From a virus (lineage: Duplodnaviria > Caudoviricetes): a stretch of 64,000 nt of DNA. The position numbers and the translations under genes are program-made. The stretch lies in IMG/VR virus record IMGVR_UViG_3300028048_002144; one strand, given 5' to 3'. Numbering within the stretch: the first letter of the stretch is position 1; each line of letters begins with the position of its first letter. This document shows, in pieces, positions 54,683-64,000 of the stretch. Under the pieces are notes generated by a model. That model saw nothing but the letters and a program-made list of their open reading frames with translations, was not told the DNA's origin and ran no database searches.

Positions 54683-56032
54683 ATTGCTCCGACTTTTATA
54701 AGTCGGAGCTTCTTGCTTCAACCATTACTGCATTCCTAACAAGTTACCTTGTCGGCTCGTCTTACACAATGTCCACAAGCGTATAAGTTCGGGCTATTCC
54801 ATCCCTACTATAATATTTAGTTCTAATCTACTTCAGCCAGTAGTCGTAATCCTTCGTTTAGGATATTGATAGCTGCGTTTTGATCACGATCCATCGTAAG
54901 ACCACAATCGCATACCATTTTACGGATGGTTAAGTCTCTCATTTCTGGATGTTTTGTTCCACAACAATGACAAATTTGTGATGACGGGAACCACTTATCT
55001 ACTTTTACAAGATATTTGTTTCTTTCTGATAACTTATATTCAAGCATCGACAGAAACATACCATAACCGTTATCCAGAGTAGCTTTACCGTTCCCAAATC
55101 CTTTATTAGACATAGCTTGCATGTTTAAGGATTCCACACATACAACATCATACCGATTGGCTATCTCAGTAGATATCTTATGCAGATTATCCAGACGCTG
55201 ATTAGCAATATGTCTATGGATTTTGTTTACTTTACGGAGTTGTTTTATATAATTTTTGGACTTTACCTCGTGTTTTTTAGATCCTTGCATGCGGGATAGC
55301 CTACGCTGTGCTTTGGCAAGTTTATCATGACTCTCACGATAATATTTGTGATTAGTTCCTACGTTACCGTTGCTATCCACATATAAGCCATTAGAAGCGT
55401 AGTCTAATCCGATAGCATTGGTCTTATCTGCTACATAAAGATTTGTTATATTCGCAAACTCAAAAAGAATAGAAATATAATATTTGCCATCTGATTCTTG
55501 TGATACGGTAGCGGATTTAATAATCCAATCGCTATCAGGAATACGATGGATAACTGCTTTTACCTTACCAATCTTAGGAAGCTTGATATATTTATTCTCT
55601 ATGATAGCAACAGTGCCTTTTTGATTATTAGTAGTATAGGACTTTCGGCTATGTTTTGCAGACTTGAATTTAGGGAATCCGTTTTTCTTTTTGCGGGATT
55701 TACTAAATGCATTGCGAAATGCTTCCTGTAAATCCATTTGCTTATTAGCAAGAGCTAGACTATCCACTTCTTTGAGATAAGGATAATCTTTTTTGTATTT
55801 AGCAGGTGTAACAGTAGGGAACTTGCCAGTAGCCTTGTAACCTTCAATTTTATCGGAAAGCATAAGATTCCAGACCTTACGACAACAGCCAAAGGTTTTA
55901 GCAAACATAACAGATTGTTCAGTTGTCGGATATATTCTGTACTTAATTGCTCTATTCATTAACTACCTCATGCGATTCATTTTATCGCCTATACTGTGCT
56001 TATTGGTGAGGAAATCTCGTCCACGGTGACTC
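54679..56032 (-). mobile_element. IS200/IS605-family TnpB-only element inserted 3' of TTAT at the end of clpX
   Basis: Right end GCTCCGACT-TATAAA-AGTCGGAGC then TTCAC; TTAT at 56036-56033; removal leaves sensible ends for both flanking ORFs. Confidence 0.8.
54823..55959 (-). CDS. tnpB: RNA-guided endonuclease TnpB
   Basis: YRIYPT, FGCCR, GLDY, VESL, DRDQNAA. Confidence 0.95.
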   Translation of the reverse strand: MNRAIKYRIYPTTEQSVMFAKTFGCCRKVWNLMLSDKIEGYKATGKFPTVTPAKYKKDYPYLKEVDSLALANKQMDLQEAFRNAFSKSRKKKNGFPKFKSAKHSRKSYTTNNQKGTVAIIENKYIKLPKIGKVKAVIHRIPDSDWIIKSATVSQESDGKYYISILFEFANITNLYVADKTNAIGLDYASNGLYVDSNGNVGTNHKYYRESHDKLAKAQRRLSRMQGSKKHEVKSKNYIKQLRKVNKIHRHIANQRLDNLHKISTEIANRYDVVCVESLNMQAMSNKGFGNGKATLDNGYGMFLSMLEYKLSERNKYLVKVDKWFPSSQICHCCGTKHPEMRDLTIRKMVCDCGLTMDRDQNAAINILNEGLRLLAEVD

Positions 56033-57482
56033 ATAATTCTAATTTGATTTCTTTTGCTTCAGCATTCTTTTCATAGATTTGTTTATTAACTAATGTCTGT
56101 GTTTGAGACAATAAAAATCTTACACCTAACTTATTTTTGAATGCCTTTTTAGCAATTTCTTTCTTTAAATCATCAGACATATATATTGATATATTATATT
56201 TGTCTGACATCTTTTTCTCTGGAGAGATTCGTTTATCACATAAAATCTTATAAAAATCCTCTTCTTTTAGTTCGTTTAATTCTGTAATAGATGTAATTCG
56301 TCCTGCTATTTCTGGGATAATCCCAAACTTGATAATATCGTCAATGCTTATCTCTTTATGTTCTGATGCATTGTTTTCTGAGCCAAATCCAATTGTATGT
56401 GGTTTATCTGTTTTTGCTTTATATAACATCTCAAAAGCACCTAAAAATACAAAAGAGATATTACTTGTATTAATAATTACCTTGCTATATTTATCAAAAT
56501 TAACAGTAACGTTAGTGCCTTCTATCATAGATAAGAATTCACCTTGTAATGTTCTATGTAACTGTTCTCCACCAGATGTTATTTTAGGCGAACACATTTT
56601 ATCAAATTCATCAAATACGATAATACTATGTTCTACGTCCTCTACACTCATTCCAGAAGCTAACATTTCTTCTAAAACAGAATATGATTTCTTATTGCCG
56701 GTAAATCCATCCGCAGTAATAGATGATACGTCATATATATAAATATTATTATTAAGCTTCTGTAATGTTCTCCATATTTCGGTTTTGCCAGATCCAGATG
56801 GCCCGATAAAAAGTGCATTTTCTTTAATATCTCGATTTCTTTCCCATAGAATCATAGCAGCTTGTTTCTTTGCTTCTTCCTGGGAAAATACAAAGTTATC
56901 TAAAAACTGCTTAATATCTTGTGGTTGTAATTTATCTTTGATAACATCTTTTAGATCTAAGCATAGACTAGGATCTATTTCACTTTTAATTTTATCCCAT
57001 TTTTTAGGCAAATATGTACTTAATACATTTTCATAATCTATTTCTGGGAGTTCTGGGGCATCATCACCATATAGGTTATCTAAATCTTCTATAGATTCCA
57101 TACTCCTAAAATCAGCTAAAGATAGATTATCAATGTCTACACCAGAGAATGTTTTAGATACTCCAAAAATATCTTCTTCTGTAACAATATTTGCGCCTTT
57201 TATAGTCAAAGCAACATCTATATTCCCCTCTATTTCTTTTTCACATAAGAATCCTTTATCTACAAGAGAATCAATAATCTCTTTAGAATAATCTTTTTCA
57301 TAATCATATGTTTGCTCTAACATATTTAACATATCATCCAAATTGATAAATAATACTGGAACATAATTAGGATCCATTTCTGCGTTAATTGTGATTTCTG
57401 CCCAGTATCGAGAAAGCATGATACAATATAGGCGCAGCATTCTTTTTTCGTTGTCTGTTAGTTTCTCTTTTATATTATCCAT
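56031..57482 (-). CDS. clpX: ClpX-like AAA+ ATPase with atypical N-terminal domain
   Basis: QEEAKK, GPSGSGKT, FDEFDK, IGF loop, PEIAGR, GVR; no C4 zinc finger. Confidence 0.8.
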   Translation of the reverse strand: MDNIKEKLTDNEKRMLRLYCIMLSRYWAEITINAEMDPNYVPVLFINLDDMLNMLEQTYDYEKDYSKEIIDSLVDKGFLCEKEIEGNIDVALTIKGANIVTEEDIFGVSKTFSGVDIDNLSLADFRSMESIEDLDNLYGDDAPELPEIDYENVLSTYLPKKWDKIKSEIDPSLCLDLKDVIKDKLQPQDIKQFLDNFVFSQEEAKKQAAMILWERNRDIKENALFIGPSGSGKTEIWRTLQKLNNNIYIYDVSSITADGFTGNKKSYSVLEEMLASGMSVEDVEHSIIVFDEFDKMCSPKITSGGEQLHRTLQGEFLSMIEGTNVTVNFDKYSKVIINTSNISFVFLGAFEMLYKAKTDKPHTIGFGSENNASEHKEISIDDIIKFGIIPEIAGRITSITELNELKEEDFYKILCDKRISPEKKMSDKYNISIYMSDDLKKEIAKKAFKNKLGVRFLLSQTQTLVNKQIYEKNAEAKEIKLEL

Positions 57483-57584: not shown

Positions 57585-59321
57585 TTAATCCCTTGAATAC
57601 TTGTCTACAGCTCCTATTGTTTTAGCTTCTGCTGATACTTTTATATCCAATAGATATGCTTTGTTCGTCTTATCATCTATTACATGTACTTCATAGCCAT
57701 TTTCATCTTCGAATTCCTTTAATTTTGCATATGTTTCTGGCCACTCTTTAGAGTATAAAGAGTCAACATGGAATAGCAAATGAGATGACTTCTTTTTTAA
57801 CGGTTCAGCATTTTGAGCAAAAGCTACATATGTTGTAGTTGCAACTTCATCACTATTATCATTATCATTCTGATCTTCTTTAATCAGAACGTTTAATCGA
57901 ATAGCATTGTTTTTCTTTAGCAAGATCTCATTTTTATTAATGAATTTCTCAAAACATAATACTCTTATAGAATCTGTTTTATCTTCCAAATCAAACATAA
58001 CCATTGATTTTCCGGTTTTAGTCTTTTTATACTCTAAATTTGTGATAATACCAGATATATATTCAGTATTTAGTTCTACATTCTCAATAGGCTTATCAAC
58101 TACGTTATAGTATTCAATCGGATGATTAGTAATAAAAGCACCAATAAGTTCCTTTTCCTTCATCAATGCTTCGTAATCATCTTCTTTTGAACTCTCTAAA
58201 TGATATATTTCTACATCATTCATTTCTGCTAATAATGCGTTAACACTATTTTCAGCATTCTGGATTTTTTTCTGAATAGAGTCTACTGTAGGAATTTTAT
58301 TGTTTGTAATAATATTACTAATAGCGATATTATTTTCGGTTAATATCTCTTTAAATTCATTTATATTATTACCTTTATATGATTCCACTAAAGGTTTTGT
58401 ATTTTTTAGCGCTACCAATTTTTTCTTTTTATCTTTCATAGTTTTTCGTAGTGCTAATAACTCTTTAACTGGAGTAAACTCCTCTTCACTAGCATCATAA
58501 TCCAGATCTATGTTCGAATATCCCAGACTTCTAAAAGCCCCAATATCTATTAAGTTTTTAATAGTTGCATCTTCAATAGAAGTACATCTATTAATAAAAT
58601 CCTTAAAGCTTCTAAATGGACCGTCTTTTTTTCTGGTTAATAGAATATGTTTAACATCATCAGTTTTTAGTCCCTTAATCATATTAAAACCTAGAATTAT
58701 AGTAGGCGTTTCTCTTTCTCCTACTACAATACATTTAGCATTAGATTTATTGATATCTGGTGTAGAAACTGACACTTTAAAGTCTTTTGCATCTTCTATG
58801 ATACCGTTTATTTTTTCTAGCTTATCAGTATGATCAAGAATTGATGCAAAATATTCTCCTGGATAATAATATTTGAGTGCTGCTGTTTTGAATGAAGTTA
58901 GTGCATAACAAGCCGCATGAGATTTATTAAAGGCATATTTTGCGAATTTGAGCATTTTTTCGAATAGATCTTCTGCTACTCTTTTGCTTTCCTCTGGAGT
59001 ATCACAGATTTTTCTATCTATGCAGCCTTTAATAAAAATTTCTCTTTCAGCTAAAATCTCATCTTCATGCTTTTTAGACATGGCTCGTCTAACTATATCA
59101 GCTTTGCCAAGTGTATAATTCGCAAGTTCACAGAAAATCTGCATTACCTGTTCCTGGTATACAATTACAGAATATGTTTCGCCCAAAATAGGCTTTAATA
59201 ATTCTGTATCATACTTAACATTAGCATTTTTCTTATTCTTAATATAGTTAGGGATTTCGTCTATAGGCCCTGGTCTATACAAAGCATTCATAGCTATCAA
59301 GTCTTCAAATTTTAGACTCAT
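57585..59321 (-). CDS. dnaE: DNA polymerase III alpha, C-terminal subunit (fingers, HhH, OB)
   Basis: ALYRPGP, VYQEQVM, RRAMSKK, YAFNKSHA, PDINKS; own promoter motif and AGGAGG RBS. Confidence 0.93.
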   Translation of the reverse strand: MSLKFEDLIAMNALYRPGPIDEIPNYIKNKKNANVKYDTELLKPILGETYSVIVYQEQVMQIFCELANYTLGKADIVRRAMSKKHEDEILAEREIFIKGCIDRKICDTPEESKRVAEDLFEKMLKFAKYAFNKSHAACYALTSFKTAALKYYYPGEYFASILDHTDKLEKINGIIEDAKDFKVSVSTPDINKSNAKCIVVGERETPTIILGFNMIKGLKTDDVKHILLTRKKDGPFRSFKDFINRCTSIEDATIKNLIDIGAFRSLGYSNIDLDYDASEEEFTPVKELLALRKTMKDKKKKLVALKNTKPLVESYKGNNINEFKEILTENNIAISNIITNNKIPTVDSIQKKIQNAENSVNALLAEMNDVEIYHLESSKEDDYEALMKEKELIGAFITNHPIEYYNVVDKPIENVELNTEYISGIITNLEYKKTKTGKSMVMFDLEDKTDSIRVLCFEKFINKNEILLKKNNAIRLNVLIKEDQNDNDNSDEVATTTYVAFAQNAEPLKKKSSHLLFHVDSLYSKEWPETYAKLKEFEDENGYEVHVIDDKTNKAYLLDIKVSAEAKTIGAVDKYSRD

Positions 59322-59424
59322 TTTTTAATTCCTCCTTTTTATCATTAAAAATCTACTTATAATATGAAAGATTAATAAGTCAATTTATCAAAAAAGCCCT
59401 GGGAATAATCCCAAGGCTTTTACA

Positions 59425-61512
59425 TTACTTGCTGTTTAAATAGAATGCTTTGAAGATATCAATCAATTTATCAGCTAGTTTGTTTGGTTCACATGCAATA
59501 AATTGCTTTCCATACATTTTACTATATGTATCCAAAATCTCTTTATTATAACTGTCATTCATATCCAAATACTCTGAGATATAAATAGGTACAACTATAA
59601 TACCATTTTCCCTAGCAATTCTAACAGCTTCCTGTACATCATATGCTGGATTAATTTCGGTAGAATTATAATCCGTAGGAAGACCATCTGAAATAATTAC
59701 AAATATCTTCTTTTCTTCTGGACGATTAAGGAGTTCTTTTGTGGCAATTCTGATTGAATATCCATCTTTATTTCCACATTCAGCATCTAATGCCTTTAAG
59801 AAATTGAATGAATTAGAATTACTCTGTACTTCATCAAACTCTTTTACACATCTATGAATAACGTTATTATCACTGCATGTAAATGATGTGATTTTAAGAG
59901 GCATTAATTCTTTAAATGCTTCTTCAATTAAAGTCGATGCTCTACATGCTAACTCTCTTTTACTTCCATACATAGAACCTGAATTATCCTGCAAGATATA
60001 TGCGACTCCGTCAAATTCTTTTTCGTCAATTTCACGTTCAAAGAATTCTGTTTCACCTAGAATCATCTTGTACAGATCATCTTCACAAACGTCTCCTCGT
60101 GTTAAATCTGTTTCGATTGACTTCTGGTTACGAAGAATCTGCATTAATTCCTGTTTAACTTTCTGAGCATTTGCCTGGATATCTGTAGGCGTTGGATAAT
60201 TCAACTTATATTCTCTAGGCAATTCTTTAAAAGTAACATCTGGATCATACAGTTTTCCTTCTGATTTTTCTAATGATGGTGGAGTTGGATTCATTTTAAC
60301 AGGCTTTTCCATAACGCTTTTTTGAGAATCAATTTTACTCTTTTCCTTTTCAGAAACTGCATCTAAGCTTTCCTGGGCTTCTTTTACATCCTCTTCTGAT
60401 GGTGTACTTTTAGCTGAATCTTTAAGCTTTTCTTTAACATCTTTGCCTTTAGCTTCATCTCCCTTATCTTTTTCTTCTTTTTTATCGCTTGATGAATCAA
60501 AGATATTAAATCCATTCATAGATATATCTTCGCCAGTTTCATCATCGCTCTCTTCATTCGGAGAAAAGTTTTTAGGAAGATTATCGTATCCTTTTGCATC
60601 TGTTGAAAACATTTTAGCAATAGCACCAAGCATATTTTCAACTTCTTCAGCATCTAGTTTTACAGCTTCTAAGAATAGATCGTAGAGCTTGTTTTCGATT
60701 TCTAAAGATTTCTTCATTACTGTCATTGTTGTTTTGGCAGTAACTGATGTACCGATATCCATAAGCATTGAATCTAAAAGAGTATTAACTTCACCATCTT
60801 CTTTTACTGTATCTGCATAGTTTTTCATATACAGGCCCGATGTTGATAATGAAAGAATCTGATTTAGAATAATCTGGAGTTTTTCAATAGCGGTTAAGTC
60901 TTCCTCTTTATGTGGAAGCTTAAATTCTGCGCTATTGTAACTCTTGTTTCGGCTTACTAACAACTGGTTTTTAAAGTTATTAGATATCTCCATCTGTTTT
61001 CTTTCAATACGTCCATCTTCCATAGCATTACAGATAAAATGGTTAAATTCTTTGATTAAAGGAAGATTGATATAAATCTTTTCCTTTTCTCGCAAATACT
61101 TCAAGAATTTATCGTAATCTTCGTCTTTCTTAAAGCATCTAGTTTTACCTTCATACTTCGTTGACATATAGACAAAAAACGATTTTAAACCGGTTTTAAG
61201 TCCCCACATCCATGATCTAGCTGATGTATGTAAGATATGCCCAATCTCATGTCCAATAAGATACTTAATAACCAATACAAATTCTTTTTCATCTTTGCAT
61301 TCAACTATTAGTGGATTGCTTAATCCAATGTTAATGCACGGTGTGTTTTCATCATTATCAGTATAAACATCCTCAGAAAAATCCATTGTTAAACAAATTT
61401 CTTTGTCGATGTTATTAAGTATCCCCCATACTTTGACTTCACTATCAAATATGTTGTAATACTTATACCATTGCTTCTCAATAGCTTCAATATCTACAAT
61501 TTTAACGTTCAT
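59425..61512 (-). CDS. vWA-domain protein with N-terminal HEXXH (CobT/NorD-like)
   Basis: HEIGH, NAMEDGRIE, DNSGSM MIDAS, SDGLP. Confidence 0.85.
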   Translation of the reverse strand: MNVKIVDIEAIEKQWYKYYNIFDSEVKVWGILNNIDKEICLTMDFSEDVYTDNDENTPCINIGLSNPLIVECKDEKEFVLVIKYLIGHEIGHILHTSARSWMWGLKTGLKSFFVYMSTKYEGKTRCFKKDEDYDKFLKYLREKEKIYINLPLIKEFNHFICNAMEDGRIERKQMEISNNFKNQLLVSRNKSYNSAEFKLPHKEEDLTAIEKLQIILNQILSLSTSGLYMKNYADTVKEDGEVNTLLDSMLMDIGTSVTAKTTMTVMKKSLEIENKLYDLFLEAVKLDAEEVENMLGAIAKMFSTDAKGYDNLPKNFSPNEESDDETGEDISMNGFNIFDSSSDKKEEKDKGDEAKGKDVKEKLKDSAKSTPSEEDVKEAQESLDAVSEKEKSKIDSQKSVMEKPVKMNPTPPSLEKSEGKLYDPDVTFKELPREYKLNYPTPTDIQANAQKVKQELMQILRNQKSIETDLTRGDVCEDDLYKMILGETEFFEREIDEKEFDGVAYILQDNSGSMYGSKRELACRASTLIEEAFKELMPLKITSFTCSDNNVIHRCVKEFDEVQSNSNSFNFLKALDAECGNKDGYSIRIATKELLNRPEEKKIFVIISDGLPTDYNSTEINPAYDVQEAVRIARENGIIVVPIYISEYLDMNDSYNKEILDTYSKMYGKQFIACEPNKLADKLIDIFKAFYLNSK

Positions 61513-61614
61513 ATTTTCTCCTTTCTTATCTTAAAATTTCATCTTAAATATGAATGATTTTTTGTATAAAAAAAGATAGATATAGCATAAACTATATCTA
61601 TCTTTCTGTTTCAA

Positions 61615-63156
61615 TTACATATCACCGATGATATTGTTAATCAAATTGAGAATAACATCATTTCCAGCATCTGATGTTGCATTAACTACACATGTAGTAA
61701 TAGCCTTTGATAGCTTTGTCATAGGCATTTCCAGACCTTTTGTATTTACCATTACAGCAGCTGTTTCATTAAGTGCTCTTACGAAACCTCGAATATTAAG
61801 AGTATCATCTGAAATATTTCCCTTCTGGTTTGCGTCCTGGAACTTAATGTACAATTCATTACACTTCTCAAAATACTTGCGTGGCAGTCTAGTTTTAGTG
61901 TATTCCTCACATGATTCCATTAAGATATTTAAAATATCCTTATGATATGGGAATTTTACAACATCAAATCTTGACATTGTAGCTGCATCAAGTCTATTTG
62001 TAGATGTGTAATTGCTACCTACATTCTGTGTTCCGATAATAAAGAAATCCTTATTAATTTCTACTGTTCCAGACTTTGCATAGAAAGTTTTACTACCATC
62101 TGCAAAAGGATGCAGGGCTGCTACAGTATTGCTATTACCGTGGTTGATCTCATCTGCGAAATATGGGATTCCTACAGGAGCAGCCTGGAGAAGATTTCCT
62201 CTTTCTGTTCCTAATCTAGGAGCCATTGAACAGTCTTTAGCGTAATTATATGCAATTAGCAGTTCTTTTTCCTCTGGAGTAAGATCTGACATTTTTTTCT
62301 CATTAAGCTTTAAGCTCAATTCGATTTCAATAGCCTTATTTGCTTTTTCAGAGTCAAATGCATCAAGTGCTGATGGTACAGTAGTCTTTGTTTCAAACAA
62401 GTCATTAGCAGTCATTTTGTTATTCAGGATATCTTTTCTATATGGAAGATTTAATATCCAACAAATAGTCTCTGCCATTACACCTTTTCCTGTAGACTTA
62501 TCACCTTCAAAGATAAATGAAGATCCAGCTAATGCTTTACCGAGAACCATAGTGACAATACTCTCTTCTTTATAGAAGTTGATATTATCGTATGTATCTA
62601 CGAACTTAGCCTTTGGCTTAGAACCCTTTTCTTCTCTATTATGAGAAATCCAGTATTCAATTACTGACATAATGAGTTCCTTTGGAGCTGGGATTCTTAG
62701 ATACTTCTTTGATTCCAGATATTCTACAATCTCCATAGCATTGTCTTCATCAATGCAACCCTGGGCTACAGCTTCTTTTACTTTAGATACAATATCACTA
62801 GAAGACTCTACTTTAGTAGTAGTTGTCTTTCCTTTAGAAGCAACCTTTTTATCCTTCACCTTTACAGTAAAAGATACCAGCTGACCACCGTTTTCTTCAT
62901 ATGTATCTTTTGTAATTGAAAAATCAAATGTTAAAGCCATTTTGAGTGTATTCAGATCAACTGTTTCACCAGAATCATTATCAACTACACTCTCTACAAA
63001 TCCAACAGTAGTATCCTTATAATCCATAAGAATTCTAGGCTCTACAAGCTTGAATTCAAAAGCTGCATTCTTTACGCTATTAGCTGTAAAGTCTTTTAAA
63101 AGAACATCTCTCTGTGGATACATAAATGGTGTTTTAATTGTAATGTTATAATTCAT
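61615..63156 (-). CDS. MoxR/CbbQ/CobS-like AAA+ ATPase
   Basis: GDKSTGK, ADEIN, GTQN, LDAATMSRF, IRG. Confidence 0.85.
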   Translation of the reverse strand: MNYNITIKTPFMYPQRDVLLKDFTANSVKNAAFEFKLVEPRILMDYKDTTVGFVESVVDNDSGETVDLNTLKMALTFDFSITKDTYEENGGQLVSFTVKVKDKKVASKGKTTTTKVESSSDIVSKVKEAVAQGCIDEDNAMEIVEYLESKKYLRIPAPKELIMSVIEYWISHNREEKGSKPKAKFVDTYDNINFYKEESIVTMVLGKALAGSSFIFEGDKSTGKGVMAETICWILNLPYRKDILNNKMTANDLFETKTTVPSALDAFDSEKANKAIEIELSLKLNEKKMSDLTPEEKELLIAYNYAKDCSMAPRLGTERGNLLQAAPVGIPYFADEINHGNSNTVAALHPFADGSKTFYAKSGTVEINKDFFIIGTQNVGSNYTSTNRLDAATMSRFDVVKFPYHKDILNILMESCEEYTKTRLPRKYFEKCNELYIKFQDANQKGNISDDTLNIRGFVRALNETAAVMVNTKGLEMPMTKLSKAITTCVVNATSDAGNDVILNLINNIIGDM

Positions 63157-63212
63157 TATAATCTCCTTTCAAACTTAAAAATTCTAATACTAATATGAAT
63201 GATTTTTATAAT

Positions 63213-63247
63213 AAAAAAATAAGAGTAGGAAATCCTACTCTTATTTT
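63213..63247 (-). terminator. Intrinsic terminator directly after the dnaE N-terminal gene
   Basis: AATAAGAGTAGGA-TT-TCCTACTCTTATT plus T tract. Confidence 0.8.
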
Positions 63248-63248
63248 C

Positions 63249-64000
63249 TTAACTAAGTTCTTTTAAGTATTTTCTCATTCCAGCAGACTCAAACTGAAAT
63301 ACGTTCTTTGTTCTTCCTTTAGCATAGATATTTTCGTATACCTCTTCAGCGGAATGGCCAAATCTATCCGTGCCTTCAACTGGGAAATCTTTCTCAATAT
63401 CAATATCTTCACCATAACGTTCGCTAATCATTCTGATAGCATCCGTCATTATTGATAAGTTATTAAGTCCTAGAAAATCCATTTTTAAAAGGCCATTTTC
63501 TTCAGATTCAATCTTATCTGTTTCTACTACTCTTTTATTAGAAACTATTGTTGTAGACGTATAATTAGTAATATCGTTATCATCATAGATAATAATACCA
63601 GCTGCATGCTGTCCATACTGTCTTAGCATTCCCTCAATATTATATGCAATGTCCAGGATCTTTATTGCATTTTCGTTAGCAGAAAAATCAGATTTCAAAC
63701 TTTCAATCAAAGTAGTTTTATTATCATCAATCTCTGAATCAAAAGCCCAGAAATTATCGGTAATCTTTTTACAGATTTCATCAGCTAACGCATAATATGC
63801 ACCAGGAGATCCAACAAGTTCACCATAATATCGAGCAGCATCTTTTACGGAAGACTTTGGCTTTAAATATGATTTAGTGATAATTCCTGCTACTGCATCG
63901 TTTCCATATTTATTCTTAACATAAAGAATAACTTTGTTTCTTACATTTGGAGAAAAATCACAGTCCAAATCGGGCATAGATACTCTTTCTACGTTCAAAA
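63249..64000 (-). CDS. dnaE: DNA polymerase III alpha, N-terminal subunit (palm/thumb; begins beyond the right edge)
   Basis: ERVSMPDLDCDF, QHAAG, GLLKMDFLGL, VFQFESAGM then stop. Confidence 0.93.
   Translation of the reverse strand, partial: LNVERVSMPDLDCDFSPNVRNKVILYVKNKYGNDAVAGIITKSYLKPKSSVKDAARYYGELVGSPGAYYALADEICKKITDNFWAFDSEIDDNKTTLIESLKSDFSANENAIKILDIAYNIEGMLRQYGQHAAGIIIYDDNDITNYTSTTIVSNKRVVETDKIESEENGLLKMDFLGLNNLSIMTDAIRMISERYGEDIDIEKDFPVEGTDRFGHSAEEVYENIYAKGRTKNVFQFESAGMRKYLKELS

Follow-up and report, generated by a model that had tools for sequence, protein, structure and literature searches.

To our knowledge, replicative C-family DNA polymerases have been treated as having single-chain catalytic subunits, and the only well-known natural split among them is that of cyanobacterial DnaE, which an intein repairs. 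Here we describe a dnaE gene, encoding the α-subunit of DNA polymerase III (Pol III), that lies in two unjoined parts 3.9 kb apart on a 64,000-nucleotide (nt) stretch of a tailed-phage record (Duplodnaviria; Caudoviricetes; IMG/VR IMGVR_UViG_3300028048_002144), the whole of which is called the window below. Its two products probably work together as a non-covalent two-subunit polymerase.

In cyanobacteria, two genes encode DnaE, and an intein that splices in trans joins their products (Wu et al. 1998; reviewed in PMC2677866). As in the window, the two genes are cut in the fingers region; however, the cyanobacterial halves carry the parts of a split intein and are ligated, whereas those of the window are without intein residues. 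‘Fractured genes' have been described in phage-like loci, where DNA-metabolism genes, dnaE included, are broken with a gene between the parts (Dassa et al. 2009, PMC2677866). They are defined by split inteins and a free-standing homing endonuclease, and because the window has neither, its locus is not a member of this class. For group 2.2 jumbo phages, Iyer et al. (2021, PMC7824862) predict that a split minimal Pol III α-subunit is put together again from two separately encoded proteins, which likewise gives an intein-less catalytic module made of two chains. That version is nevertheless minimal (no PHP, HhH or OB domains), is encoded by genes that lie far apart and accompanies a family B polymerase, whereas the window enzyme is a full-size DnaE whose halves are separated by 3.9 kb within a replication module.

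The closest working counterpart is nrdA of the Aeromonas phage Aeh1, a split phage gene whose two products, NrdA-a and NrdA-b, show activity as separate chains (Crona et al. 2010, PMC3045599). This ‘gene in pieces' resembles the window's dnaE in that an enzyme essential to DNA metabolism is encoded by two separately translated genes, with neither splicing nor DNA rearrangement. The window halves are likewise separately translated, in register and both conserved, selection having been measured in relatives. The two cases differ in that the Aeh1 gap holds a single homing endonuclease gene (mobE) and both NrdA chains carry insertion-derived tails that are essential, whereas the window gap holds a pair of AAA+ and von Willebrand factor A (vWA) genes and no endonuclease, the tails amount to 2–4 residues and a C-family polymerase is the enzyme concerned. 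Moreover, the active Aeh1 enzyme has been rebuilt from its separate chains, whereas for the window we infer reassembly from the genes and from a structural model. Searches of the literature returned no description of the dnaE split of this clade.

Position of the break and expression signals

All genes between 52 and 64 kb of the window lie on the minus strand, in DNA of about 30% G+C. Four open reading frames (ORFs) follow one another on that strand, in the order dnaE N-part, AAA+ gene, vWA gene and dnaE C-part, with signals between them that include ribosome-binding sites (RBSs):

63249..63998, minus strand: dnaE N-part, 3′ portion (249 residues); ORF open at the window edge, ending FQFESAGMRKYLKELS-stop
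63205..63251, minus strand: terminator-like hairpin and T-run, beginning at the N-part stop codon (sequence; inverted repeat I7)
63157..63204, minus strand: cassette head of the AAA+ gene, with ATTCATATT box and GAAAGGAG RBS (sequence; copy of repeat D1)
61615..63156, minus strand: MoxR/CobS-like AAA+ ATPase, 513 amino acids (aa) (Pfam AAA_5; phrog_249)
61513..61614, minus strand: AAA+/vWA spacer, with hairpin and T-run, ATTCATATT box and RBS (sequence; copies of repeats D1/D2)
59425..61512, minus strand: CobT-like vWA protein, 695 aa (Pfam CobT_C and VWA; motifs in the translation)
59322..59424, minus strand: spacer before the C-part, with hairpin AAAGCCTTGGG...CCCAGGGCTTTTTT, CTTTCATATT box and AAAGGAGG RBS (sequence; reference copy of D1)
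57585..59321, minus strand: dnaE C-part, 578 aa, starting MSLKFEDLIAMNALYRPGP (ORF, Pfam and structure alignment)

The dnaE N gene is readable in the window for its last 249 residues, its 5′ part lying beyond the edge. These residues match DNA_pol3_alpha of Pfam at positions 94–260 (3.5e-34) and the first part of DNA_pol3_finger at positions 1–59 of 166, and they end in ESAGMRKYLKELS followed by TAA. The C-part takes up the same finger profile at positions 63–164 (1.5e-34) and continues into HHH_6 (8e-22) and an OB fold; the latter scores 24.4 bits, under the Pfam cutoff of 27, against 36.9 bits for the OB fold of the relative L009. Since the finger profile is divided between positions 1–59 on one chain and 63–164 on the other, the break is clean and lies inside the fingers domain. 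Alignment with α-subunits of solved structure agrees: the N fragment aligns to residues 454–679 of the Taq protein and 392–623 of that of E. coli, and the C-part to residues 686–948 and 628–893, respectively, so that the break maps to about 623/628 of E. coli α, some 60 residues into the fingers domain. The comparison with an intact relative, P0124 (1403 aa), is exact. Its residues 589–848 correspond to window positions 63998–63231 and its residues 849–1399 to 59306–57606; at the junction 848|849 there is neither gap nor overlap, and nothing has been lost or duplicated.

The three catalytic aspartates all reside on the N chain, in the motifs PDLDCD and MDFLG, which align to SMPDIDTDFS and LLKMDFLGL of Taq α. 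The fingers are divided, with their first ~60 residues on the N chain and the remainder, including the motifs RRAMSKK and FAKYAFNKSHA, on the C chain. The C-part keeps all 57 columns that are invariant across split and intact relatives, and both window halves are intact ORFs in which every invariant and catalytic motif is retained. They are located in a replication module together with genes for a primase and an NAD-dependent ligase.

The three intergenic spacers measure 92, 102 and 103 nt and are built to one plan, in which a hairpin with a T-run is followed by an (A/T)TCATATT box, a GGAG-type RBS and ATG. Each of the three genes downstream of the N-part thus has its own terminator, TCATATT box and RBS, and the 42-nt promoter/RBS module forms a three-copy direct repeat (family D1). 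The terminator of the N-part corresponds to inverted repeat I7, whose 19-nt arms are 95% complementary; the consensus terminator scan did not call this hairpin, because its stem is AT-rich.

Neither half contains an intein or Hint domain detectable with Pfam. No extension led by Cys or Ser follows KELS at the end of the N-part, and no HN-Cys/Ser/Thr precedes SLKF in the C-part, which starts MSLKFEDL. An intein remnant, or ‘clasp', was considered and rejected, there being no extra residues at the break. The cyanobacterial intein site, which we take to be FAEY|CFNKS, would lie ~125 residues downstream of the window's break, and the motif FAKYAFNKSH occupies residues 126–135 of the C-part.

A preliminary description of the locus, drawn from the letters and translations, had reported an N-part stop followed at once by a terminator, a C-part with its own TCATATT motif and RBS, two halves free of stops with essentially no sequence lost between them, and three catalytic aspartates on one chain, and all of this is borne out by the hairpin at 63205..63251, the signals within 59322..59424, the ungapped alignment to P0124 and the motifs aligned to Taq α. 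Its statement that fingers, HhH and OB fold lie on the other chain holds for the HhH and OB fold and for the greater part of the fingers, and needs correcting for the first ~60 fingers residues, which belong to the N chain.

The break in relatives

When the C-part was searched against 5.8 billion proteins, with clusters formed at 90% identity, 28 clusters from public metagenomes were found to have the same break (the 27 best foreign matches and one more). They are 559–658 aa long, 33–42% identical to the window C-part, open a few residues before IEDIIAMNALYRPGP (45–85 residues before it in a subgroup) and are without FQFESxGM, whereas all lower-ranked matches either contain FQFESxGM or are gene-call fragments. 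A corresponding search with the N-part of a relative returned 21 N-part clusters of 808–893 aa, likewise from public metagenomes, which run from PHP through the palm into the beginning of the fingers and end 8–11 residues after ESxGM. When a library of 50%-identity representatives was searched with the N fragment of the window itself, the result agreed. For two pairs of N- and C-part clusters, the longest contigs are of equal length (110,609 for P0402/P0021 and 12,056 for P0404/P0008).

The subgroup with longer N termini comprises the C-parts P0002, P0004, P0006, P0014, P0019, P0022, P0026 and P0029, each with an extension of 45–85 aa. These extensions show no DnaE homology and none ends in HN plus a nucleophile; they are possibly interaction tails like those of Aeh1 NrdA. 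Another C-part broken at the window's site, P0016, is annotated as ‘OB-fold nucleic acid binding domain-containing protein'.

Genomic context is provided by L009, an IMG/VR element that has the same break as the window, with an 849-aa N-part ending FQFESAGMRNNLKMLCS-stop and a 561-aa C-part. A PHP domain is present in the L009 N-part, as in the N-part clusters. The gap of L009 is unrelated to that of the window: it spans 5.7 kb and ten ORFs, including those for an RlaP-like nucleotidyltransferase, a 5′–3′ exonuclease and a DUF3232 protein, although both of its ends show the terminator/GTCATA-box/RBS layout seen in the window. The preliminary description held that the split was created by insertion of the AAA+/vWA cassette. 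This is not shown; rather, the ten different genes in the gap of L009 make the split older than the present gap filling.

IMG/VR was scanned four times, with the alignment A2 and with the patterns AMNALYRPGP, D..RRAMSKKH and FQFESAGMR, and the only other split lineage recovered was L009 with the 99%-identical G002. Among the loci of the A2 and C-part scans, 75 DnaE genes were scored as contiguous at the site, and the others that were checked proved contiguous too; in loci from the later pattern scans DnaE was contiguous wherever the junction was readable. GenBank phages contained no member of the split clade, nor did any of the 240 loci found when genome and metagenome contigs were scanned with back-translated AMNALYRPGP, these being intact DnaEs of the Bacteroidota type.

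Comparison of L009 with G002 gives a ratio of non-synonymous to synonymous substitution rates (dN/dS) of 0.08 for the C-part (21 synonymous and 7 non-synonymous changes) and 0.03 for the first piece of the N-part (17 versus 2). The second piece of the N-part, with 3 synonymous and 5 non-synonymous changes, is short and has too few changes to judge. Taken with the shared break, these values suggest that the split layout is under selection in dozens of relatives.

Three relatives within the split clade or adjoining it (P0124, P0271 and P0408) are intact. In quick trees, the C region requires two to three changes of state; these trees place the window C-part as a lone deep branch, with a root-to-tip length similar to that of its relatives; in an approximately unbiased test, a single split clade received p = 0.048. 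These trees fit either a single origin followed by re-fusions or several independent origins. A longer linker in P0124 had been taken as a sign of re-fusion; this was dropped, the linker at the window's break (site A) varying from 13 to 17 residues among other phage DnaEs.

These data also bear on whether the split gene might be a disabled relic, with the host polymerase or another polymerase of the element carrying out replication while the halves decay or serve some other purpose. Such a relic would fit the lone deep branch of the window C-part and the low score of its OB fold (24.4 bits against a cutoff of 27), and the rest of the element lies outside the window. However, neither ORF is interrupted and no invariant motif has been lost, the branch is comparable in length to those of relatives, the halves accompany primase and NAD-dependent ligase genes in a replication module, and dN/dS in the relatives is 0.03–0.08. 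Moreover, a break common to dozens of diverged clusters is unlikely to persist in a dead gene. We therefore regard a relic as very unlikely.

The same stretch of the fingers is broken or interrupted in other ways. At a second site (site B), about 30 residues downstream of site A, at least ten N-part clusters (P0125–P0127, P0405, P0411–P0413, P0415, P0454 and P0458) run through the window's break point and end 38–47 residues after GM, behind ALYRPGPxDxIPEFIxxK. Two further N-part ORFs, P0446 and P0150, leave the DnaE frame right after FRPGP, reading ...WGFSVNPITQGCxA-stop. P0446 is annotated as ‘PHP domain-containing protein'. Their tail resembles the read-through tail of an insert in G002 and probably marks another intron site. 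This insert (IMGVR_UViG_3300045988_182851; L110:2257-3170) adds ~0.9 kb to the dnaE N-part at exactly SMP|DIDSD, where the catalytic aspartates lie. T is the last letter of the exon and G that of the insert, GCCT of the exon has a possible pairing partner in a GGGC within the insert, and the insert encloses an ORF for a 172-aa HNH-type protein; by these features it looks like a group I-like intron, although Rfam did not report it. It has none of the stop, terminator, promoter and RBS architecture that characterizes the window's break. Because site B, the intron-like tails and the variable linker all fall here, this stretch of the fingers tolerates insertion and breakage. With the second break site and the group I-like intron in relatives, dnaE is a hotspot of fragmentation.

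It may be asked whether the halves in the window are rejoined before use, be it by cis- or trans-splicing of group I or II introns, by trans-splicing of the proteins or by a programmed excision that removes the 3.9-kb segment from the DNA. Such rejoining would have a precedent in the group I-like intron with its HNH ORF at SMP|DIDSD of a close relative and in the two N-part clusters in which RPGP is followed at once by a tail of similar kind. Furthermore, although Rfam found no intron in the window at expectation values up to 1, this negative is not decisive, the insert of G002 having been missed as well. On the other hand, the window's break consists of a stop codon, terminator hairpin, promoter box, RBS and ATG; these signals fully occupy the spacers of 92–103 nt, leaving no room for a ribozyme core or intron halves, and the gap is filled by two complete genes, each with signals of its own. 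Neither junction end carries Hint or intein residues. The gap genes encode an AAA_5 ATPase and a CobT_C/VWA protein and include neither a homing endonuclease nor a recombinase, and no repeats suited to excision flank the segment other than the shared promoter modules. Finally, L009 keeps the same break with a different gap filling. Rejoining by any of these routes is therefore highly improbable, in line with the earlier claim that the window holds no intein or intron.

A probable two-subunit polymerase and its modelled complex

The reading that we consider likely is that DnaE works as a non-covalent two-subunit polymerase, which would be the replicative polymerase of a phage-plasmid-like element. 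Like that of L009, the N subunit would comprise PHP, palm and thumb together with some 60 residues at the start of the fingers, and would bear all three catalytic aspartates; the C subunit would provide the rest of the fingers, including RRAMSKK and YAFNKSH, as well as the DNA-binding HhH domain and the OB fold. The halves would be transcribed and translated separately, each from its terminator/TCATATT-box/RBS cassette, and the two chains would reassemble through fragment complementation of the fingers, so that the active site is composite although the chains stay unjoined. What we infer in this scheme is that the halves associate and that the enzyme is active; gene layout, register, the conserved break, purifying selection in relatives and the lack of intein or intron signs are observed.

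The N fragment (249 aa) and the C-part (578 aa) of the window were modelled as a complex, with alignments of 14 and 28 rows, respectively, and alongside three controls. The pair reached an ipSAE score of 0.85, against 0.00 for the best control. Of 80 solved complexes, 58 attain this score, as do 2 of 110 mismatched pairs, although the counts apply here only approximately because our own alignments were used. At least 67% of contacts were shared between runs, and the predicted local distance difference test score (pLDDT) of the partner was at least 80. The modelled interface is formed by residues 177–249 of the N fragment and residues 2–30 and 139–203 of the C-part, and amounts to packing inside the fingers. 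Of the checks named in the preliminary description, structure prediction of the heterodimer thus gives a pass, controls included, the search for homologues split at the same point gives the 28 C-part and 21 N-part clusters, with gap genes that vary in L009, and dN/dS is 0.03–0.08 in the L009/G002 pair. The pass of the model shows likeness to one fingers domain rather than binding, and may reflect contiguous Pol III α-subunits, whose structures are solved.

Several further points weigh against a two-subunit polymerase. The contiguous enzyme clearly also works, since the intact P0124, P0271 and P0408 lie in or next to the split clade, and splitting brings no known gain. The genomic context of split relatives comes from one independent lineage, L009 with its 99% twin, and it is to these relatives rather than to the window's own lineage that the dN/dS values belong. 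The silence of Rfam on the window is weak evidence when taken alone, because Rfam also missed the group I-like insert of G002. Lastly, a second, intact polymerase may be encoded elsewhere on the element, and the N gene begins beyond the window, which includes its 3′ portion.

Neighbouring genes and significance

The AAA+ protein in the gap matches Pfam AAA_5 with 27.5 bits (cutoff 22) over the second half of the domain, AAA_3 remaining below its cutoff, and phrog_249 (‘porphyrin biosynthesis') at 3.7e-14; its first ~200 residues match no family. Its Walker A motif, GDKSTGKG, is atypical in being without the usual Ser/Thr after GK, and a Walker B motif (FADEI) is present. The vWA protein, whose gene adjoins that of the ATPase, matches CobT_C with 40 bits (cutoff 21) and VWA with 22 bits, and combines an N-terminal HExxH motif (HEIGH) with the metal-ion-dependent adhesion site motif DNSGS. 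Its nearest relatives in GenBank phages are annotated as porphyrin-biosynthesis or cobaltochelatase-like proteins. MoxR–vWA pairs in which the vWA protein is fused to a metallopeptidase have been described in jumbo phages, where a role in virion assembly was proposed (PMC7824862), and the vWA protein of the window has the same architecture.

A similar pair, AAA_5 with a CobT_C/vWA protein bearing an N-terminal HExxH, lies beside dnaE in other, unrelated phage-plasmids. In the Klebsiella phage-plasmid pJN2-26 (L360; MZ779062.1 91071-98378), genes for a CobT-like vWA protein and an AAA protein are followed by one for an intact DNA polymerase III α-subunit, and in the IMG/VR locus L052:3428-11461 the order is vWA, AAA, sigma factor and intact DnaE. 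By tblastn the pair beside dnaE in L067 and L068 looks the same. In pJN2-26 and L052, vWA thus precedes AAA and both lie upstream of an intact dnaE, whereas in the window AAA precedes vWA and both lie inside the split.

It might be supposed that the pair is a dedicated chaperone that assembles the DnaE halves, so that its position in the gap is functional. The two genes do stand exactly between the halves, MoxR–vWA pairs are regarded as chaperone/co-chaperone systems (PMC7824862), and the recurrence of the CobT-like vWA and AAA_5 genes beside dnaE in pJN2-26, L052 and, by likeness, L067 and L068 hints at a link with replication generally. Yet DnaE is intact in pJN2-26 and L052, so the pair does not depend on the split; L009 and G002, conversely, are split, and neither the gap nor the remainder of their records, each ~60% complete, contains a homologue of the AAA+ or the vWA protein. 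The role proposed for such pairs is in virion assembly, and the Walker A motif is without its usual Ser/Thr. We consider a dedicated chaperone improbable. Because the pair adjoins intact dnaE elsewhere and is absent from split relatives, it is a recurrent dnaE neighbour in phage-plasmids, split or not, rather than a split-specific chaperone. The preliminary description, which saw in the two proteins either passengers or assembly chaperones, is superseded in this respect, since in other phage-plasmids such proteins are commonly encoded next to an intact dnaE. Under the two-subunit reading they would be genes of the replication module that ended up in the gap and that the split state does not need.

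A more far-reaching idea would make the fingers linker a recurrent fission point, with site A broken independently in the window lineage and in the main clade, site B broken too, perhaps a re-fusion in P0124, and the CobT-vWA/AAA+ neighbour acting as a polymerase or replisome assembly factor that makes such fissions tolerable. We offer it as speculation that is unlikely to hold.

Directly downstream of the dnaE C-part, two further genes follow:

56031-57482, minus strand: ClpX/ClpB-like AAA+ ATPase (AAA_2 and ClpB D2-small domain)
54823-55959, minus strand: TnpB (OrfB_IS605), next after the ClpX/ClpB-like gene

Beyond the split locus, the window encodes an NAD-dependent ligase, a primase, TnpB proteins and a ClpX-like ATPase.

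The repeated neighbourhood of dnaE and CobT/CobS-like genes is a separate lead on the role of the ‘cobaltochelatase-like' pairs of phages. If the two-subunit reading is true, the locus also carries a caution for annotation pipelines, in which the halves of a split polymerase would go unrecognised, and it would offer a natural fragment-complementation site for engineering a split Pol III α-subunit. The cut falls inside a domain, leaving the catalytic aspartates on one chain and the conserved RRAMSKK motif, which is taken to bind the nucleotide, on the other. A full-size DnaE that dozens of diverged gut and rumen elements maintain in the form of two separate chains would then be a case study in how essential phage genes survive fragmentation.

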